This document shows, piece by piece, positions 8,168-50,499 of a stretch of 64,000 nt of DNA (positions are counted from its first letter, which is position 1; each line of letters begins with the position of its first letter). The notes beneath the pieces are model-generated. The model did no database searches. It was given only the letters and a program-made list of their open reading frames with translations, and had not been told where the DNA came from. The stretch lies in the NCBI RefSeq assembly GCF_058153355.1, contig NZ_CM177019.1; one strand, 5' to 3'. The position numbers were made by a program, and so were the translations under genes.

Positions 8168-9172
8168 TTAGTTACGGCTGAGCACGCCGCGGCGATAGAG
8201 ATTACGTTTAATGCGTGTTAACCCAGGTTTTGGCTTACGCGGTTCGTCCAGGCTTGCCAGGACAATTTCCAGCACACGCTCTGCGACATCGCGGTGACGT
8301 TGAGCCACTGCCAGCACCGGGCACTGTAAGAAGTCGAGCAGTTCGTTATCGCCAAAGGTGGCAATTGCCAGGTCAGAAGGCAGTTTGCCATCGCGACGCA
8401 GCGTGACATCCATCACCCCTTGCAACAACGCAAACGACGTTGTGAACAGCGCCTGCGGCATCGGATGCGTTTCCAGCCATTTTTCGAATAACTGGGCAGC
8501 CGCCTCCCGCTCATAACTGTTGGCATAAAGGAAATGCACTTCGCGCGGATCATCTTTCCAGGCAGTACGGAAACCTTGCTCACGCAAGAAGCTCACAGAA
8601 AGCTCCGGCAGCGCGCCAAGATAAAGCACCGTCTCGGCGGGAAACTTACGTAACTCTTCCGCCAGCATTTCGGCATCATCCTGATCGGCACCAACCACGC
8701 TGGTGAAGTGTTCACGATCGAGGGCGCGATCCAGCGCGACAATCGGGAACGGGTCGTTAGCCCAGCGTTGATAAAAAGGATGCTCTGGTGGCAACGACGT
8801 CGAAACAATAATGGCATCAACCTGACGCTGTAGAAGATGCTCAATACAACGCATTTCGTTGTCTGGCTGATCTTCTGAGCAAGCAATCAGCAGTTGATAA
8901 CCCCGTTGCCGCGCCTGACGTTCAAGATAATTAGCGATGCGGGTATAGCTAGTGTTCTCCAGATCGGGGATCACAAGACCAATAGAACGTGTGCGTCCAG
9001 CACGAAGCCCAGCTGCCACGGCGTTCGGGTGGTAATTGTGCTCACGCACCACAGCCATGACTTTTTCAACGGTTTTGTCGCTCACACGGTATTGCTTCGC
9101 TTTGCCGTTAATAACATAGCTTGCAGTGGTCCGCGACACTCCCGCTAGCCGAGCGATTTCATCCAGTTTCAC
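8168..9172 (-). CDS. cra: Catabolite repressor/activator Cra (FruR), LacI family
   Basis: 334-aa ORF starting [38 protein letters not shown] with an N-terminal HTH; matches Cra over its full length. Confidence 0.97.
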
Positions 9173-9351
9173 AATTGCCCCTTGCGTAAAATGTAAAAAC
9201 CATAGCCATTGTACTGGTATGGGTTAAATTCATTAACATCTAAGCGCAGAAAATTAACTGCGGCAACTGCTTTTATTCCAGGTTCCCACTGAATTCGCAA
9301 AAAAAGCCCAACGTGACATGTTGGGCTGCAAATTGCGCATTGAGATCATTC

Positions 9352-9843
9352 TCAACGCATTATTTTATCGCCGCGCGAAAGTCCAACTACACCAGAGCGA
9401 GCAACTTCCACAATTTTCGCCACATCGCGAATCGATGCTAAAAATGCATCAAGCTTATCGCTGGTGCCTGCCAGTTGGACGGTGTAAAGCGATGGCGTGA
9501 CATCGATGATTTGCCCACGAAATATTTCCGTATTGCGCTTCACTTCGTCACGTCCGTAGCCGCTGGCCTGAATTTTCACCAGCATAATTTCCCGCTCGAC
9601 GTGTGCCCCCTGCCCCAGCTCGCTCACGCGCAAGACATCGACCAGTTTGTGTAATTGCTTTTCGATCTGCTCAAGCACTTTTTCATCGCCCACGGTCTGG
9701 ATGGTCATACGCGATAATGTCGGATCGTCGGTGGGCGCAACGGTCAGGCTTTCAATGTTGTAGCCACGTTGGGAAAAAAGGCCAATCACGCGGGATAACG
9801 CGCCTGATTCATTTTCGAGTAAGACTGATAATATCCGGCGCAT
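9352..9843 (-). CDS. ilvH: Acetolactate synthase III small (regulatory) subunit IlvH
   Basis: Canonical start [19 protein letters not shown] (163 aa) at 9843; lies 2 nt downstream of the ilvI stop. Confidence 0.95.
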
Positions 9844-9845
9844 AA

Positions 9846-11570
9846 TCAGGTTCTCTCCGTTTTGCTTAACCACATTTCATCCATTCCGCCCCCGCGAATC
9901 TGCATCGGGTAGACGTGCTCACTGCCATCGACGGTAACATCAACAAACACCAGACGATTATTGCGCACCTGTTCCAGCGCCTCACTAAGTTTGCTTTCCA
10001 GCTCTTGCGGATGAGAAATCTGGATCCCAACATGCCCATAGGCTTCCGCCAGACGGACGAAATCGGGTAGCGATTGCATATAAGATTGTGAATGGCGGCC
10101 GGAATAGATCATGTCCTGCCACTGCTTCACCATCCCCAGATAGCGATTATTGAGATTCACCACCAATACCGGCAACTCGTATTGCAAGGCGGTAGACAGT
10201 TCCTGAATGTTCATCTGAATACTGCCGTCACCAGTGACGCAAACCACGGTTTCTTCTGGCAGCGCCATTTTGACGCCCAGTGCCGCAGGTAAACCAAACC
10301 CCATCGTGCCGAGGCCACCAGAGTTAATCCAGCGACGCGGTTTGTCGAAAGGATAATAAAGTGCGGCGAACATCTGGTGCTGCCCGACATCAGACGTCAC
10401 GTAAGCGTCCCCCTTCGTCAGTCGCCAAAGAGTCTCGATAACCGCCTGCGGTTTAATCTTTTCACTGTGAATATCGTATTTCAGGCACTGACGAGCACGC
10501 CACTGTTCAATCTGCTGCCACCAATCGCGGATCTCATCCAGCGGTTGATGGGCAGATTCTTGCGACAGGAGTTCAAGTATTTGTTCGAGGACCTGGCGGG
10601 CATCTCCAACAATCGGGATATCAGCAGTCACAGTTTTAGAAATGGAAGTAGGATCAATATCGATATGCAGAACCGTGGCATTTGGGCAGTACTTCGCCAA
10701 ATTGTTCGTCGTTCGATCATCAAAACGTACCCCGACGGCAAAAATCACATCCGCGTTATGCATCGTCATATTGGCTTCGTAGGTACCGTGCATTCCCAAC
10801 ATGCCCAGTGCCTGACGATGCGTTGCTGGAAACGCCCCCAGCCCCATTAATGAGGAAACAACGGGCAGATTCAACGCCTCCACCGTGTCTTTCAACTGCT
10901 GATGGCAGCCCGCCGTGATTGCCCCACCGCCTACATACACAACCGGTTTTTTTGCCGCCACCAGCGTTTGCAGAGCGCGCTTAATTTGCCCTTTATGTCC
11001 GGAGGTCGTGGGATTATAAGACCGCATACTGACCGACTCCGGCCAGACATAGGGTAATTTGTTCGCCGGATTTAGAATATCTTTCGGTAAATCAACGACC
11101 ACGGGTCCAGGACGACCACTTGCCGCCAGCCAGAAAGCCTTTTTCAGCACCTGCGGAATGTCTTCCGTTTGCTTAACCAGAAAACTGTGCTTCACCACTG
11201 GGCGGGAAATTCCCACCATGTCGCACTCCTGAAAAGCATCGTAGCCTATCAACGAAGTTGCTACCTGCCCGGAAAGAACAACCAAGGGAATGGAGTCCAT
11301 ATAAGCGGTGGCGATGCCGGTAATCGCATTGGTCGCCCCTGGCCCCGATGTTACCAGCACGACGCCGACTTCCCCGGTCGCGCGTGCCAGACCATCGGCC
11401 ATATGCACCGCCGCCTGCTCATGACGAACTAATACATGATCGATACCACCCACGGTATGCAATGCATCGTAAATATCAAGGACCGCGCCTCCGGGATAAC
11501 CGAATACTTGTTTAACGCCCTGATCGATAAGCGATCGGACGACCATCTCGGCTCCAGACAACATCTCCAT
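9846..11570 (-). CDS. ilvI: Acetolactate synthase III large subunit IlvI
   Basis: Canonical start [28 protein letters not shown] at 11570 (574 aa); TPP-enzyme motifs present. Confidence 0.95.
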
Positions 11571-11885
11571 GGCCTGCCTCACTGTTTAACGGAAAAATGT
11601 GTAAAACACATTAACCGCCCGATCTTGCTTAAGCAATTGGTAGCCAGAGACATAAATACGAGGTAATAAGAATAAACAGGAGGAAAGGTGAAAAGAAACG
11701 ATAAAATCCTCCATTACGGAGGATTAAATTGATAATAAATCGGCTAAATCCCACAACTTACAGCAATTTCTCTATTTTTTAATTAATCCTAAAATAGTGA
11801 ACTCACACATTCAGAATAAAATTCTATATTCAATAAAAAATACAGAATAAATCAGTAATCAATATCTGACCTATTCTGCATTCAG
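11571..11885 (-). promoter_or_regulatory. ilvIH upstream regulatory region (Lrp-controlled promoter in E. coli)
   Basis: 315-bp AT-rich non-coding region upstream of ilvI; the function is assigned from established knowledge of ilvIH regulation, and individual sites were not mapped. Confidence 0.4.
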
Positions 11886-12830
11886 TTAGCGTTTGCAAAT
11901 TGAGACTAATTGCTCTTCCATCCACTGATGGCCTTTGTCGCGCCCGGCAGCTTCATGCCAGGAGAGATAACAGGTTCTGCTATTTTGTTTTAATGGCAGC
12001 GGTAATACCTGTAACTCTAAAGATTCAGCGAACTCTTCAGCCAGCCAACGCGGCGCAATAGCGACCAGATGCGTTTGCGACACCACGCTCAGTACACTCA
12101 TCATTGCCATGCCCTGATACGCGATACTGGCTTGTTTATCTACCGTGTCATACCACGGTTGACTAAATGACGCGAAACGATCGAGCGAAACTGCCGCATG
12201 TTGTTCGTTATAAACATCATGTTTCAGTAACGGGCCTTTAATTGTTGGATGATTTTTGCTGGCTACCAGCACCATTTCATCTTTAAATAATGGCACACTG
12301 GTAAATTCAGGACGATGGAAGTCTTCATAACTAATCACAAACTCCGTTTCCTGATAACGCAGTTGATGTTCAGTGTTCTGATTTAATGAAGACTTGAACA
12401 TAACATGTATATTTGGCGCAGTTTGCTCAATGTGATTATATATCTGCGAGGTCAGAATGCTGTCTAACGGACTGCAAACACAAAGATGAAATACACGTTC
12501 ACTGCTCGCGGGTTCAAAACCTGAACCTGGCAATTCATTTTGTACTAATTGCAATGCCTGACGAACTGAACCAAAAAGTTGAAATGCGCGAGCAGTCGGT
12601 TGAATGCCACGGCCATAACGAACAAAAAGCTCGTCATTAAACATCACCTTCAGGCGTGCAACCGCGTTACTGACCGCAGGTTGCGACATCCCCAGAACAT
12701 GAGCGGCACGGGTGATGTTTTGCTCCTGCATCACGGCATCGAAAACGGTTAATAAGTTGAGATCGACCATGCGTAGTTGTGGCTTGCTTAACTCCGCCGT
12801 CTCTGGTTGCTCTGTTTGTACCTCTGGCAT
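11886..12830 (-). CDS. leuO: LysR-family transcriptional regulator LeuO
   Basis: Canonical start [30 protein letters not shown] at 12830 (314 aa); the ORF-track 342-aa version is over-extended. Confidence 0.93.
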
Positions 12831-13488
12831 ACTTAACTCCACTGTCACACTTAACTCCCTTTCCCTTATTGGAATGCAGAGAAATAATCCTCGAGAATAT
12901 GATTTATCATGCATATAAAATAAGAAAAAGGAAAATGAGAAAAATTAGGAAAACATAAAGATACGGGTTCTTATAAAAACAGAACCCATTGCCGAGTAAA
13001 GAGTCATTTACCGCAGCATAATAATCCATAATGTTTTTGTTGCGAAAACAATCTAATCATAACTACCGCGAATACTCAATCATCCACAAAATGGATTAAA
13101 TGTGCTTTTTTAATAATTAATTTATATGTTTAATGCATTAATTCTTAACATTAATTGAACAATAATATTCACCAAATGAATATCAAAAAATTAGCAAAAC
13201 ATATAATTCAATACAAATCATCAAGATAGGTTTTGTAACGCGTGCATTTTATCCCCCTTTTCCTCGTTGATTAGATGCAAAAATTTATTCTGAAATATGT
13301 CAACCGATGAAAAGCGTCGGTGGTTAAGCAGAAATTAATATCGCTTGTTTTAACCACCGCAGCACAATTAGCTAATTTGACGAATGCAGAACTCACTCTG
13401 GCGGAACGTTTTTGTTGCGTCAGGGTTGACATCCGTTTTTGTATCCAGTAACTCTAAAAGCATATCGTATTCATCTGGAGCTGATTTA

Positions 13489-13575
13489 ATGACTCACATC
13501 GTTCGCTTTATCGGTCTACTACTACTAAACGCATCTTCTTTGCGCGGTAGACGAGTGAGCGGCATTCAGCATTAA
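13489..13575 (+). CDS. leuL: leu operon leader peptide
   Basis: 28-codon [31 protein letters not shown] with four consecutive CUA Leu codons, immediately followed by an attenuator hairpin and upstream of leuA. Confidence 0.85.
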
Positions 13576-13596
13576 GCCAGCACGCAGTCAAACAAA

Positions 13597-13626
13597 AAAC
13601 CCGCGCCATTGCGCGGGTTTTTTTAT
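13597..13626 (+). terminator. leu attenuator (rho-independent terminator)
   Basis: aaaaCCCGCGCcattGCGCGGGttttttt: a GC-rich stem followed by a T-run, just after leuL. Confidence 0.75.
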
Positions 13627-13667
13627 GCCCGAAGCGAGGCGCTCAAAAAGAGACAAGGACCCAAACC

Positions 13668-16330
<2,663 letters not shown>

Positions 16331-16332
16331 TC

Positions 16333-18349
<2,017 letters not shown>

Positions 18350-18382
18350 TTTGTACACCGTCCCGCACTCAATCGCCAAAAA

Positions 18383-18609
18383 GAAAAAAGCCAGCAGATA
18401 ATCACTGCTGGCGTGGCGATTAACACCAATACTCAGTCACACATGATGTCCGCAAATCAGTAGTCAGAATGACTCCCCTCCCACTGCATCAGTTCTTCAA
18501 GCATAGTTAATCGTTGTGGGACGCTTAACCAACGCAACCAGCACAACGTCGCTGTCGCGGTAAAATAGTGCTGATAAAACTGATGCATGGGACACCTCCT
18601 TGCTTCATC
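18383..18609 (-). ncRNA. sgrS: SgrS small RNA (glucose-phosphate stress)
   Basis: The minus strand reads GATGAAGCAAGGAGGTGTCCCATG...TGACTGAGTATTGGTGTTAATCGCCACG CCAGCAG tgattat CTGCTGG CTTTTTTCTTTTT. It contains the sgrT ORF, the conserved 3' base-pairing region and an intrinsic terminator, and is divergent from sgrR. Confidence 0.8.
18457..18588 (-). CDS. sgrT: SgrT small protein (PtsG inhibitor) encoded within SgrS
   Basis: 43-codon ORF MHQFYQHYFTATATLCWLRWLSVPQRLTMLEELMQWEGSHSDY with an AGGAGG Shine-Dalgarno sequence; near-identical to K-12 SgrT as I recall it. Confidence 0.8.
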   Translation of the reverse strand: MHQFYQHYFTATATLCWLRWLSVPQRLTMLEELMQWEGSHSDY

Positions 18610-18676
18610 GTTAGGAATTATTGACTTAATATAGGGAAAATAAAATTGCTGACTTTTGCGCAGGAGTTCCCCTTTT

Positions 18677-20332
18677 ATGCCATCTGCTCGTCTGCAACAA
18701 CAGTTCATCCGCCTGTGGCAATGCTGCGAGGGTAAATCGCAGGACACAACGCTCAACGAACTAGCGGAGTTATTGAGCTGCTCCCGTCGTCATATGCGCA
18801 CCCTGCTCAATACCATGCAGGATCGCGGCTGGCTGACGTGGGAAGCGGAGGTCGGGCGCGGTAAACGCTCACGTTTAACATTCCTCTATACCGGGCTGGC
18901 GCTTCAGCAACAGCGGGCGGAAGACTTACTGGAGCAGGATCGTATCGATCAGTTGGTGCAACTGGTTGGCGACAAAGCGGCTGTGCGGCAAATGCTGGTT
19001 TCTCATCTGGGGCGTACCTTCCGTCAGGGGCGGCACATCCTGCGCGTTCTCTACTATCGTCCGTTGCGCAATCTGCTGCCCGGCAGTGCATTGCGCCGTT
19101 CCGAAACCCATATCGCCCGGCAAATCTTCAGTTCGCTAACGCGCATAAATGAGGAAAATGGGGAACTGGAAGCAGACATCGCCCACCACTGGCAGCAAAT
19201 ATCACCGCTTCACTGGCGCTTCTTTTTGCGTCCAGGAGTCCATTTTCATCATGGTCGTGAACTGGAAATGGACGATGTGATCGCCTCTTTAAAACGAATC
19301 AATACGCTGCCGCTCTATTCGCATATTGCTGACATTGTGTCGCCGACGCCCTGGACGCTGGATATCCATCTCACGCAACCGGACCGCTGGTTACCGTTAC
19401 TGCTGGGGCAAGTTCCGGCGATGATCCTGCCACGAGAATGGGAAACCCTCAGTAACTTTGCCAGCCATCCCATCGGAACGGGTCCTTATGCAGTGATCCG
19501 CAACAGCACCAATCAACTGAAAATTCAGGCATTCGATGACTTCTTCGGTTATCGCGCATTAATCGACGAAGTAAATGTCTGGGTTCTGCCAGAAATTGCC
19601 GACGAGCCAGCCGGCGGTCTGATGCTAAAAGGGCCGCAGGGCGAGGAAAAAGAGATTGAAAGTCGGCAGGAGGAAGGTTGCTACTATTTACTGTTCGACA
19701 GCCGCACCCACCGTGGGGCGAATCAGCAAGTCAGGGACTGGGTAAGTTATGTGCTTTCTCCAACTAATCTGGTCTATTTCGCCGAGGAACAATACCAGCA
19801 ACTCTGGTTTCCGGCTTATGGACTGCTCCCCCGCTGGCATCATGCCCACCCGGCGCAGTGCGAAAAACCTGCCGGGCTGGAAAGCCTCACCCTGACCTTT
19901 TATCAGGATCATATTGAGCATCGGGTGATTGCCAGGATCATGCAGCAGATTCTGGCAAGTCATCAGGTCACACTTGAAATTAAAGAGATCAGCTATGATC
20001 AGTGGCACGAAGGAGAGATCGAGAGCGATATCTGGCTTAACAGCGCCAACTTTACGCTGCCGCTGGATTTTTCGCTGTTCGCGCACTTGTGCGAGGTGCC
20101 GCTGCTCCAACACTGTATTCCGATCGACTGGCAAGCCGACGCCGCCCGCTGGCGCAATGGCGAAATGAATCTGGCGAACTGGTGCCAGCAACTGGTCGCC
20201 AGCAAAGCAATGGTGCCGCTCATCCACCACTGGCTGATCATTCAGGGGCAACGCAGTATGCGCGGCCTGCGCATGAACACTCTCGGCTGGTTCGATTTTA
20301 AATCCGCGTGGTTTGCGCCACCGGATCCATGA
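18677..20332 (+). CDS. sgrR: Transcriptional regulator SgrR
   Basis: Canonical start [69 protein letters not shown] (551 aa), with a solute-binding-protein-like C-terminal domain. Confidence 0.93.
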
Positions 20333-20359
20333 TTGCTGGTTGATAACAAAATCACTACA

Positions 20360-20455
20360 CTAACGCCGTTCTCAACGGGGTGCCACGCAGACGCGTGCGC
20401 TGAGAAAATACCCGTCGAACCTGATCCGGATAACGCCGGCGAAGGGATTTGAGGC
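20360..20455 (+). promoter_or_regulatory. TPP riboswitch (thi-box) in the thiBPQ leader
   Basis: Conserved thi-box elements ...ACGGGGTGCC...CTGAGA...ACCCGTCGAACCTGATCCGGATAACGCCGGCGAAGGGA immediately upstream of thiB. Confidence 0.75.
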
Positions 20456-20495
20456 TCCTTCTCAAGTCCTTTGCCACTCTTCTTTGAGGTGCAAA

Positions 20496-21479
20496 GTGTT
20501 AAAAAAATATCTTCCCCTGCTGTTGCTCTGTACAGCACCCGCTTTCGCTAAACCCGTTCTGACTGTTTATACCTACGATTCCTTCGCCGCCGACTGGGGG
20601 CCAGGTCCGGTGGTGAAAAAAGCCTTTGAAGCCGACTGTAATTGCGAACTGAAACTGGTGGCGCTGGAAGATGGCGTTTCGCTTCTCAACCGTCTGCGGA
20701 TGGAAGGCAAAAACAGTAAAGCCGATGTGGTGCTGGGGCTGGATAACAATCTGTTAGATGCCGCCAGCAAAACTGGGCTGTTTGCTAAAAGCGGTGTGGC
20801 AGCGGATGCCGTTAACGTTCCCGGCGGCTGGAAGAATGACACTTTCGTACCGTTTGATTACGGTTACTTCGCCTTCGTCTATGACAAGAACAAACTGAAT
20901 AATCCGCCGCAAAGCCTGAAAGAGCTGGTTGAAAGCGATCAGAACTGGCGAGTGATTTATCAGGATCCGCGTACCAGTACGCCGGGCCTGGGCCTGTTGT
21001 TGTGGATGCAAAAAGTCTATGGCGATGACGCCCCACAAGCCTGGCAGAAACTGGCGAAGAAAACGGTCACGGTCACCAAAGGCTGGAGCGAAGCCTACGG
21101 CCTGTTTTTAAAAGGCGAAAGCGATCTGGTACTGAGTTACACCACCTCTCCGGCTTATCACATTCTCGAAGAGAAGAAAGATAACTACGCCGCCGCGAAC
21201 TTCAGCGAAGGTCACTATTTGCAAGTGGAAGTCGCCGCCCGCACCGCTGCCAGCAAACAGCCGGAGCTGGCGCAAAAATTCCTCCAGTTTATGGTTTCTC
21301 CGGCTTTCCAGAATGCGATCCCAACCGGCAACTGGATGTATCCGGTGGCAAATGTCACGCTGCCTGCCGGGTTTGAACAATTGACCAAACCAGCAACCAC
21401 GCTGGAGTTCACGCCAGCCGAAGTGGCGGCACAACGTCAGGCATGGATTAGCGAATGGCAACGCGCCGTCAGCCGTTAA
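20496..21479 (+). CDS. thiB: Thiamine ABC transporter periplasmic binding protein ThiB (TbpA)
   Basis: GTG start giving MLKKYLPLLLLCTAPAFAKPVLTVYTYDSF (327 aa) with a signal peptide; the ORF track uses an upstream TTG. Confidence 0.9.
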   Translation: MLKKYLPLLLLCTAPAFAKPVLTVYTYDSFAADWGPGPVVKKAFEADCNCELKLVALEDGVSLLNRLRMEGKNSKADVVLGLDNNLLDAASKTGLFAKSGVAADAVNVPGGWKNDTFVPFDYGYFAFVYDKNKLNNPPQSLKELVESDQNWRVIYQDPRTSTPGLGLLLWMQKVYGDDAPQAWQKLAKKTVTVTKGWSEAYGLFLKGESDLVLSYTTSPAYHILEEKKDNYAAANFSEGHYLQVEVAARTAASKQPELAQKFLQFMVSPAFQNAIPTGNWMYPVANVTLPAGFEQLTKPATTLEFTPAEVAAQRQAWISEWQRAVSR

Positions 21480-45371: not shown

Positions 45372-45682
45372 ATCCCGTCGAGCATAAAATCTAATGCTCC
45401 TTTAATCAAAGTTCGGTGCGCGCTGGCATCGCAAAATTTCGTTCCCAGCGTGTTAACTGGAACAGTTGCAGTCTCATGCGTCATGAGCACATATTCTTTG
45501 CCGTCTGCCAGTAAAAGGATTGGGTTAAGCCGTTCTGGTGGGCGAATATGGCTAAATCGTTCAATAGGTGTTAATGGAATAACGATACGGCGATTAATCT
45601 CACCAATAATGTCGCTGGTAACATCGATAACAAAGGGAAACGCGGCGTTCCTGCCGCGACTGCGGTATACCGTAAATTGCAT
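45368..45682 (-). CDS. ccdB: CcdB-family toxin homolog (chromosomal ccd system)
   Basis: 104-aa [42 protein letters not shown]...[10 protein letters not shown]; collinear with F-plasmid CcdB (MQFKVY...RRMVIPLA...LMFWGI) from memory; located 2 nt downstream of ccdA in the folA-apaH gap. Confidence 0.85.
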
Positions 45683-45684
45683 CG

Positions 45685-45918
45685 CTAGAAGCTCCGGTAC
45701 TCATCAGAGAAACATCCGGTTTCATCAGCCAATTGATTTAACGCAGCAATAGCTTCTGCGTTCTCTTCACGCCAACGTGTTGCTGCATGTTTTTTAAGTT
45801 CAGCATTGAGCGCAACCGTAAGGGTGGCGCTCATATTTAAGCCTGCATCACGAGCGCGATTGACTAACTCACGGTCGACGGTGACGGTCACACTTTGTGT
45901 GGTACGTTTTGCAGTCAT
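45685..45918 (-). CDS. ccdA: CcdA-family antitoxin homolog
   Basis: 77-aa ORF MTAKRTTQSVTVTVDRELVNRARDAGLNMSATLTVALNAELKKHAATRWREENAEAIAALNQLADETGCFSDEYRSF; resembles F-plasmid CcdA (ITVTVD..., RWKAEN...); GGAG Shine-Dalgarno; upstream region contains a GTATAC palindrome. Confidence 0.85.
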   Translation of the reverse strand: MTAKRTTQSVTVTVDRELVNRARDAGLNMSATLTVALNAELKKHAATRWREENAEAIAALNQLADETGCFSDEYRSF

Positions 45919-46003
45919 GATATCGTGCTCCTGTACAATTTATACGTCTAGTATACACGGATATCTGCACATATCAGTGATGCCGGAATTCTAATATACA
46001 AAC

Positions 46004-48529
<2,526 letters not shown>

Positions 48530-48537
<8 letters not shown>

Positions 48538-49060
48538 GATATGCCTCCTGCCATTCCAGCAGACGTTGCTTATAATGACGCGCCTGCCCTTCGAGGGTTT
48601 CGTCGTCACAAATAAAGGTGCAGTGCATAGCAAACGGAGGCAGCCAGTTCAGCCCGCAGTAGATTGCCGTCGCCTGTAGCGGCTGCGACAGCACATCAAA
48701 GCCCGGATGCGCGCCAATCTCAAAATGACTTTCCCCGCCGCCGGTCGTCACCGCCCACAGCAAATGTTTACCATGCAGTGCCGTGCCGCCGTGACCGTAA
48801 GCCCAGCCGTGCGAGAAGACTTTATCGATCCAAAGTTTAAGGAGCGGAGGAATGCTGTACCACTGCATCGGGTGCTGCCAGACGATCAGGTCGGCGCGAG
48901 ACAACGCCTCCTGCTCGGCAGCAATATCGATATTGAAGTCAGGATAGAGTTGATAAAGAGAGCGAACTTCGACGCCTTCCAGCGTCCTTGCGTGTTCAAG
49001 CATCCGTTTATTCGCATGAGAATGATGCGGATACGGATGCGCATAAATTATGAGGATCAT
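48530..49060 (-). CDS. kefF: KefC ancillary quinone oxidoreductase KefF
   Basis: 176-aa ORF starting [53 protein letters not shown]; 8-nt overlap with kefC. Confidence 0.95.
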
Positions 49061-49167
49061 AGTTAACTCGCGTGTTTACGCCTTTGTTTTCCCACAAAGT
49101 GTAGTCACATATTCACGCAGCTAATAGTCAATAATATTGATTCAAAAAAGGCAGAAATCTGAATAAA

Positions 49168-50499
49168 TTACCCCATTCGTTGCCTGCGAATCGTCATATT
49201 GCTGGTCTGGGCCAGCGACATCCCCCGTGTCTCTGGCGCAAACGCAATGGAAATCAACAAACCAAACAGCGAGATACCTGCTCCCATCAGCATCGTATTA
49301 CTGATGCCGTAATTATTGATAAAGATCGGCAGCGCCCAGGTTGAAACAATGGTGCCAATACGGCTTAAGGACATAATAACGCCCACAGCAGAGGCGCGGA
49401 TATCCGTCGGGAAGAGTTCATTAGGATAGAGCCACTGCAAATTACCCGGCCCACCAGAGAAAAAGGCATACACCGCAAATGCCATCACTACCAGCCAGAT
49501 CCCCATATCCGGGATCAGCCCCAAAACCGCCAACGCCAGCGTCATCATGGCAAAGCTGCCAATCAACAACGGACGCCGTCCGGCAGTGTTTAGCCACAGC
49601 ATCGGCGGAATACAGCCGAGCATAAAGAACAGGCTAATCACCACGTTCCCCAGTGCCGCGTTTTTGCCAACCCCCAATCCCAGCAGACCAACGATTTGCG
49701 GGCCAAAGGTGTAAATAGCGAACATTGGGATCACCTGGCAGGTCCAGATGGCGGCAACAAACAGAACAAAAGGAAAATGGCGGCGATTAAACAGATCGCG
49801 AAAACGGGTTTGCTGCGGCTGCTCTTCCTCGAAAGCCACCGGTTCGCCAAACAGTTTGATCATCATCTCTTCGCACTCTTTTACTCGCCCTTTGCGTAAC
49901 AACCAGCGGGGAGATTCAGGCAGTTCGAATCGACCAATCAAAATCAACAAACAGGGAATCGCTGCGCTACCCAGCATCCAGCGCCAGCCGCCTTCCACAT
50001 CATAAAGCCAATAGCCGACCAAATCGGCGCAGGTCGCGCCGACATACCACATCGCGGCGATAAAGCTGATGGAAAACGCCCGCTGACGGGTACTGGAGAA
50101 CTCAGTGATCATCGAAGTCGCGATGGGATAATCCGCACCGATGACAATGCCGATGAGTACCCGCATCACTAACAGTTCGACGGGGGATGAGACAAACATC
50201 GTCGCCACCGATATCACACCGATGGCGATGATATCGATGAGGAACATTTTGCGCCGTCCGACTTTATCGGAGATATAGCCAAACAGCGATGTGCCAACGA
50301 ACAGCCCGGCGAGCGTTCCCGCCCCCAGCAAGCCAATCCAGTCTGCGTCCAGCTTCAGCGCAGGAGTCAGTTGCTCCAGCGCCACGCCAATCATTACCAG
50401 TACATAACCATCCAGAAACGGGCCACCGCTTCCCCACAGCAAAATGCGGCGGTGAATTGAGGAGAATTTGAGATCGTCAAAGTTTCTGGACGATTGCAT
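49168..50499 (-). CDS. yaaU: MFS transporter YaaU
   Basis: 443-aa 12-TM MFS-type ORF starting MQSSRNFDDLKFSSIHRRILLWGSGGPFLDGYVLVMIGVALEQL; between kefF and fixX. Confidence 0.9.
   Translation of the reverse strand: MQSSRNFDDLKFSSIHRRILLWGSGGPFLDGYVLVMIGVALEQLTPALKLDADWIGLLGAGTLAGLFVGTSLFGYISDKVGRRKMFLIDIIAIGVISVATMFVSSPVELLVMRVLIGIVIGADYPIATSMITEFSSTRQRAFSISFIAAMWYVGATCADLVGYWLYDVEGGWRWMLGSAAIPCLLILIGRFELPESPRWLLRKGRVKECEEMMIKLFGEPVAFEEEQPQQTRFRDLFNRRHFPFVLFVAAIWTCQVIPMFAIYTFGPQIVGLLGLGVGKNAALGNVVISLFFMLGCIPPMLWLNTAGRRPLLIGSFAMMTLALAVLGLIPDMGIWLVVMAFAVYAFFSGGPGNLQWLYPNELFPTDIRASAVGVIMSLSRIGTIVSTWALPIFINNYGISNTMLMGAGISLFGLLISIAFAPETRGMSLAQTSNMTIRRQRMG

Follow-up and report, generated by a model that had tools for sequence, protein, structure and literature searches.

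We conclude that positions 13489-13626 of the window, by which we mean the whole 64,000-nt stretch of DNA analysed here, are almost certainly the canonical leader of the leuABCD operon, leuL, with its ribosome-mediated transcription attenuator. The attenuator is an already known, textbook system, and at this locus it is intact and ordinary. The sequence-only reading of this DNA had proposed that leuL encodes a leader peptide carrying CUA control codons and is followed by an attenuator terminator, and Rfam, Pfam, NCBIfam and gene annotation all agree with that identification. Its coordinates, its 28-codon leader and its run of four CUA codons were correct when we read the sequence ourselves. 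The features of the locus and its surroundings are collected in Table 1.

Table 1. Positions of the leuL leader, its RNA elements, neighbouring genes and differences from K-12, in window coordinates
Feature	Position	Strand	Details
leuO ORF	11886-12914	-	Mechanical ORF, 342 aa from upstream ATG; divergent from leuL
K-12 differences	13383, 13397, 13405, 13414		Upstream of -35
Candidate leu promoter -35, TTGACA	13426-13431	+	Putative; exact consensus hexamer
Candidate leu promoter -10, TAACTC	13449-13454	+	Putative; 17 nt after -35; poor match to TATAAT
K-12 difference	13468		C to T; near 5' end of leader transcript
leuL Shine-Dalgarno, GGAG	13477-13480	+	8-nt spacer to ATG; read from sequence
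leuL leader ORF	13489-13575	+	28 sense codons and stop; ATG 13489, TAA 13573-13575; read from sequence and translation
Protector hairpin	13499-13562	+	13499-13508:13553-13562, 13514-13520:13546-13552, 13530-13533:13541-13544; MFE and centroid structure
Leucine control codons, CUA x4	13516-13527	+	Codons 10-13; read from sequence
Antiterminator (preemptor) 5' arm, GCGCGG	13542-13547	+	Within leuL codons 18-20
K-12 difference	13566		C to T; Ile26 ATC to ATT, synonymous; sole difference inside leuL
Intrinsic terminator (attenuator)	13594-13624	+	13-bp stem 13594-13606:13611-13623, loop CAUU, U7 13618-13624
Common arm, CCGCGC	13601-13606	+	Antiterminator 3' arm and part of terminator 5' arm
K-12 difference	13645		Between terminator and leuA Shine-Dalgarno
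leuA Shine-Dalgarno, AAGGA	13655-13659	+	Read from sequence
leuA	13668-15239	+	ORF; gene name from annotated matching region of EC42405
leuB	to 16330	+	ORF; gene name from annotated matching region of EC42405
leuC	16333-17733	+	ORF; gene name from annotated matching region of EC42405
leuD	17744-18349	+	ORF; gene name from annotated matching region of EC42405
SgrS	18383-18609	-	Rfam RF00534, 226 bits; directly after leuD
sgrR	from 18656		After SgrS
TPP riboswitch	20366-20465		RF00059, 66.1 bits; upstream of thiB homologue (EC42405 annotation)

A short leader ORF that can be translated, with a Shine-Dalgarno sequence, a start and a stop codon, is present at leuL, and the GGAG ahead of the ATG is a plausible ribosome-binding site. 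In an alignment of 105 leaders among the matches listed, conservation of the GGAG columns is at least 90%, and the leader ORF was found in all real leaders recovered from other genera among those matches. The translated peptide matches Pfam family PF08054 over residues 1-28 of 28 (76.5 bits against a cutoff of 25, E = 1.2e-21) and the NCBIfam leuL equivalog NF007397 over residues 1-28 (80.9 bits, cutoff 59), and its score of 50.3 bits with the sibling model NF011328 lies under that model's cutoff of 63. Additionally, leuL is annotated in 5399 of 5426 complete E. coli genomes, and the locus is single-copy.

The four CUA triplets are tandem codons for leucine, the end-product amino acid of the operon. 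CUA makes up 2.8% of leucine codons across the window's 38 ORFs of at least 250 aa, and four successive CUA codons have a chance probability of P ~6e-7 under synonymous usage. The remaining leucine runs within the window use mostly CUG.

Past the leader ORF we found an intrinsic terminator that ends 44 nt before the leuA ATG, with stem arms AAAAAACCCGCGC (13594-13606) and GCGCGGGUUUUUU (13611-13623) and a predicted energy of -20.2 kcal/mol when folded alone. At the DNA level the 3' arm reads GCGCGGGTTTTTT (13611-13623), follows a CATT loop and continues into the T7 tract. The hairpin had been placed about 20 nt past the leader, which fits the measured distances from the leuL stop codon of 18 nt for the extended stem and 24 nt for the G+C core. 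Flanked by A6 (5') and T7 (3'), the hairpin is terminator-like in both directions; there is no convergent gene to use it.

The unconstrained minimum free energy (MFE) structure of the 165-nt leader (13462-13626) combines a protector hairpin with the terminator at -55.7 kcal/mol, compared with -36.3 +/- 4.0 kcal/mol for dinucleotide shuffles (z = -4.9, no shuffle as low). In the protector, helix 13514-13520:13546-13552 pairs the CUA run with GGUAGAC, and the outer helices include the Shine-Dalgarno, start and stop regions. The protector sequesters the antiterminator 5' arm, and a ribosome stalled on the control codons overlaps the protector's 5' half. The common arm CCGCGC (13601-06) can pair with either of two GCGCGG segments, at 13542-47 or at 13611-16, and in silico these two pairings are mutually exclusive.

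The predicted protector and terminator fold agrees with the Rfam consensus structure of the Leu_leader family. RF00512 matched the plus strand at 13475-13624 over model positions 1-148 of 148, with 147.5 bits against a gathering score of 50 (E = 2.9e-34). Matches to Thr_leader, Phe_leader and Trp_leader were rejected, as they reached 20-28 bits, under their gathering scores, and were anchored mainly on the terminator. Several sRNA families, likewise anchored on the terminator hairpin and below their gathering scores, were also rejected. A minus-strand Leu_leader match (13593-13647) scored 33.7 bits, under the threshold of 50, and was set aside as a reflection of the terminator's A6...T7 symmetry.

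We examined the switch between these structures by folding only the RNA 3' of the ribosome and ending before the terminator 3' arm, with free RNA taken to begin 13 nt after the first A-site base. With any of the four CUA codons in the A site, GCGCGG 13542-47 paired with CCGCGC 13601-06 at -19.1 to -19.9 kcal/mol, a structure that consumes the 5' arm of the terminator. When no ribosome was present in the nascent fold, the protector kept 13541-13552, the antiterminator was gone and 13594-13606 remained free for the terminator. With the ribosome at the stop codon the antiterminator was also gone, and nothing 3' of the ribosome competed with the terminator. A ribosome decoding the last CUA, which starts at 13525, reaches as far as 13537, short of the antiterminator arm at 13542; thus, the geometry fits. 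With these alternative terminator and antiterminator pairings and the GGAG ribosome-binding site, neither of the two observations that would have refuted the sequence-only reading was made, and the attenuation logic is intact.

When the ribosome mask was applied to the full-length leader RNA, the terminator never left the thermodynamic optimum. Thus, the antiterminator would have to act kinetically, during transcription. In the standard attenuation model, the decision between terminator and antiterminator is made kinetically as the RNA is transcribed.

Under the mechanism that we propose, transcription would begin about 27 nt before leuL, with ribosome loading at GGAG-N8-AUG. If charged tRNA-Leu for CUA is plentiful, the ribosome would pass the four CUA codons, and the CUA run would re-pair in its wake with GGUAGAC (13514-20:13546-52 together with the flanking helices), locking up GCGCGG 13542-47. 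The freed nascent CCCGCGC (13600-06) would then pair with GCGCGGG (13611-17), and the 13-bp hairpin followed by U7 would end transcription before leuA. If the charged tRNA that decodes CUA is scarce, the ribosome would stall on a CUA codon and mask the 5' half of the protector. The unmasked GCGCGG 13542-47 would pair with CCGCGC 13601-06 once the latter is made, pre-empting the terminator and letting RNA polymerase enter leuABCD.

Conservation was assessed by scanning one genome per species for exact CTACTACTACTAAACGC, which returned at least 120 loci. Five chance matches, six loci truncated at an edge and duplicates were left out, and the 104 distinct leaders that remained were aligned with the window; they come from Citrobacter, Enterobacter, Klebsiella, Raoultella, Kosakonia, Kluyvera, Salmonella, Erwinia, Franconibacter and others. 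Neither a real leader ORF nor a real terminator accompanies the five chance 17-mer matches, which lie in Enterococcus, Anaeromicropila, a cyanobacterium, a Nitrosopumilales archaeon and an uncultured bin. As the alignment was selected on a 17-mer spanning the CUA run, invariance of those columns is by construction.

Among the matches listed, mean column identity of the 105-leader alignment is 78%. None of these 105 leaders departs from GCGCGG, CCCGCGC or GCGCGGG, and even the synonymous third positions of codons 18-19 are unchanged. Pairing over the same 105 listed leaders is 100% for the antiterminator core, 98.2% for the protector helix of the CUA run and 94.8% for the terminator, whose core pairs are invariant. 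Compensatory changes in the CUA-run helix comprise U-A to C-G in 21 leaders and G-C to C-G in 2 of the matches listed. Sliding the 3' partners by 1-3 columns lowered protector and terminator pairing from 81.7% to 38-49% in the listed leaders, a comparison in which the tested structure, having been derived from the window sequence, is favoured over the slid controls. RNAalifold, with no structure supplied, recovered both the protector core and the terminator.

Pairs with both sides changed were not above shuffles, and the observed value was reached by 111 of 500. Covariation support is modest, and the unvarying antiterminator core shows constraint, not covariation. Among the matches listed, the LeuL peptide is conserved across genera mainly at the positions of the control codons and RNA helices (GLLLLNA..RG) and only loosely elsewhere.

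The leader sits directly before leuA-leuB-leuC-leuD and is divergent from leuO, and equivalent annotated leu regions are found in K-12, EC42405 and FDAARGOS_497. Because leuO is divergent, no upstream plus-strand gene needs the terminator at 13594-13624. In related genomes leuO is annotated as 945 bases (314 codons), compared with the 342-aa mechanical ORF of the window. The LeuO accession is WP_001361829.1 in FDAARGOS_497 and EC42405, which are near matches to the window around leuO, and WP_001115472.1 in K-12.

A candidate leu promoter lies upstream of the leader, and among the matches listed an exact TTGACA precedes 93 of the 110 leaders of other genera. At the -10 position, again among the matches listed, 16 other leaders have TAACTC like the window and 72 have TACCAC; both hexamers match the -10 consensus poorly. 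A consensus promoter and terminator scan of the plus strand flagged neither the leu promoter nor the attenuator terminator. The promoter was missed because its -10 is weak, TAACTC being without the required final T, and the terminator because the A-U extension of its stem uses up the T tail. The K-12 start site, which we take to be about 27 nt before the leuL ATG, would place the start in the window near 13462.

The sequence-only reading had also held that several LeuL residues differ from K-12, and a lineage-specific variant leader, in which such differences alter the peptide or the attenuator and hence regulation of the leu operon in this strain, has to be weighed on that account. We aligned the window with K-12, with FDAARGOS_497, which matches the window exactly, and with two other E. 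coli lineages. Sequence divergence does exist, as the 301-base region 13380-13680 is 97.7% identical to K-12 with 7 differences, and the neighbourhood around leu differs by ~4.5%. However, all 28 of 28 LeuL residues are the same in the window and K-12, accession WP_001300467.1 being common to K-12 and FDAARGOS_497, and the claim of variant residues falls away, leaving one synonymous base change in the ORF. Of the seven differences, four precede the -35 and a fifth (13645) falls in the stretch from the terminator to the leuA Shine-Dalgarno, so that only 13468 and 13566 lie in the leader transcript. Both are unpaired in all predicted states (protector, antiterminator and terminator), and predicted energies are equal in the window and K-12, at -55.7 kcal/mol for the full leader and -19.9 kcal/mol for the antiterminator. 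The peptide and the RNA helices thus largely refute a variant leader, which we regard as extremely unlikely. The supposed variant residues may stem from the Salmonella enterica subsp. arizonae leader, in which five residues differ.

That the leader is a chance short ORF beside an ordinary terminator, with translation and termination uncoupled, has some superficial appeal, as many spurious short ORFs overlap the region and the consensus scans flagged no plus-strand promoter or terminator. We consider its probability negligible, given the improbability of the CUA run, the curated RNA and protein family scores far over their cutoffs, and the conservation, in more than 100 species, of three interlocking helices together with the control codons and the ORF itself. 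A different proposal accepts the attenuator and adds a function in trans, besides that in cis, for the terminated leader RNA (~160 nt) or for the 28-aa LeuL peptide. It has a precedent at another attenuator, as reported for rnTrpL and peTrpL in Sinorhizobium (PMC6614838, PMC7298713), and the leader transcript is constitutive and abundant relative to leuA, by 29-fold (PMC8384417). If it held, cis attenuation alone would not explain why parts of the leader are strictly invariant. However, nothing in the present evidence points to such a role, and the peptide's conservation pattern, with GLLLLNA..RG at helices and control codons, is what RNA-level constraint predicts; trans action is, in our view, very unlikely. 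We therefore retain the canonical cis-acting leuL attenuator as our reading of the locus.

The alignment with K-12 also bears on the suggestion that leuL could serve as a lineage marker. The LeuL peptide, being the same as in K-12, is unsuitable as a marker at the peptide level. At the nucleotide level one distinguishing SNP stands, and the remainder of the suggestion does not, since the SNP is common to 187 genomes and lies within a recombination mosaic. The use of leuL as a lineage marker is thus weakly supported. Among the 5399 genomes, the K-12-type allele occurs in 4762 and the window type, with T at 13566, in 187, so that at least 4949 genomes encode the same LeuL peptide. E. albertii, Salmonella and Citrobacter likewise have T at 13566, which on this distribution is probably the ancestral state.

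FDAARGOS_497 carries the window allele exactly, yet it is close to the window only over ~12000-14500 (~2.5 kb; leuO, leuL and the 5' part of leuA) and is 4-6% divergent on both sides, with 12-34 mismatches per 500 bases. EC42405 has 0-5 mismatches per 500 bases over 9000-16500 and 8-38 per 500 from 17500 onward. From this patchwork, the window allele follows a haplotype of a few kilobases that recombines, and not a clone.

The number of CTA copies varies among complete E. coli genomes, and the window has the common 4 copies. Alleles with 3 x CTA and 5 x CTA, counted as exact matches on a K-12 background, occur in 9 and 30 of the 5399 genomes, respectively. Strain F1267 is an example with three copies (LeuL WP_011378540.1), and five copies are carried by an O145 strain and by a subset of the O157 strains, among others. 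The predicted protector, antiterminator and terminator are maintained with 3, 4 or 5 copies. The pattern suggests recurrent slippage, which might tune the attenuator. In strain DE17, a C-to-T change in the inner-hairpin loop of leuL (1610-1696 of its locus) gives LeuL S17F (WP_001374869.1), and the A tract before the terminator is one base shorter; the predicted structures are preserved.

The source genome appears to belong to a divergent or under-sampled E. coli lineage. The best full-length identities to the window among 5426 complete RefSeq E. coli genomes, compared over 9000-21000 and 38000-50000, were 99.0% and 98.6%, and no close relative of the source genome was found in that set over those intervals. 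A non-coli Escherichia was considered and rejected, as identity to the representatives recovered (E. albertii, E. whittamii and three other Escherichia-labelled genomes) was at most 94%, compared with 95-99% for E. coli.

Downstream of the operon, setA is absent from the window between the end of leuD (18349) and SgrS. K-12 has a 1.2-kb setA between sgrT and leuD, and EC42405 and FDAARGOS_497 are also without it. In FDAARGOS_497 the gene after sgrR is espY2, encoding a T3SS effector, at the place taken by the thiB side in the window and EC42405. The sgrT of FDAARGOS_497 carries a frameshift annotation, a property of that genome and not of the window. The TPP riboswitch of the window is an ordinary feature.

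Published experiments in K-12 address the behaviour of this leader in cells. With the decoding tRNA impaired, ribosome profiling detected pausing on leuL at its four CUA codons. RNA-seq density from leuL to leuA fell 29-fold in controls and 4-fold with stalled ribosomes (PMC8384417). In the same work, a leuL-leuA'-nLuc reporter was induced 11.5-fold with CUA codons and 2.7-fold with UUA codons (PMC8384417). A LeuL-GFP fusion is repressed by leucine and not by glycine (PMC2836559), a translation model ranks leuL among the five sequences most sensitive to leucine starvation (PMC3783181), and the leu operon is described as the standard example of rare control codons (PMC1183508). From this work, and given an identical peptide and near-identical RNA, we infer that the window leader would likewise stall ribosomes in vivo and respond to leucine. 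Regulation of leucine biosynthesis in the window's strain is expected to be as in K-12, and the importance of the locus beyond annotation quality is slight.

The nearest known system is the K-12 leuL attenuator of Wessler and Calvo (1981), which, as relayed in PMC8384417, shares with the window the peptide, the four CUA codons, the three helices, the predicted energies and the position between leuO and leuA; the leader transcripts differ by two silent or unpaired base changes (13468 and 13566). The leader of Salmonella enterica subsp. arizonae has the same architecture, with 28 codons, four CUA codons followed by AAC GCA, and the same invariant elements GCGCGG, CCCGCGC and GCGCGGG. Its LeuL peptide (MSHIVRFTGLLLLNAFSVRGRRVGGIQH), however, has five residues unlike those of the window, and its outer helices differ in sequence. 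The Vibrio cholerae LeuL candidate is also a leucine-repressed leader before leuA, with over-represented CUA and an intrinsic terminator, but it has 20 residues and two clusters of three leucine codons, half of them CUA, and is not alignable with the window's (PMC2836559). The leaders trpL, hisL, thrL, pheL and ilvL belong to the same class, in which a leader ORF carries a run of codons for the end product and the RNA forms mutually exclusive helices (PMC1183508), and they differ from leuL in their control codons and sequences.
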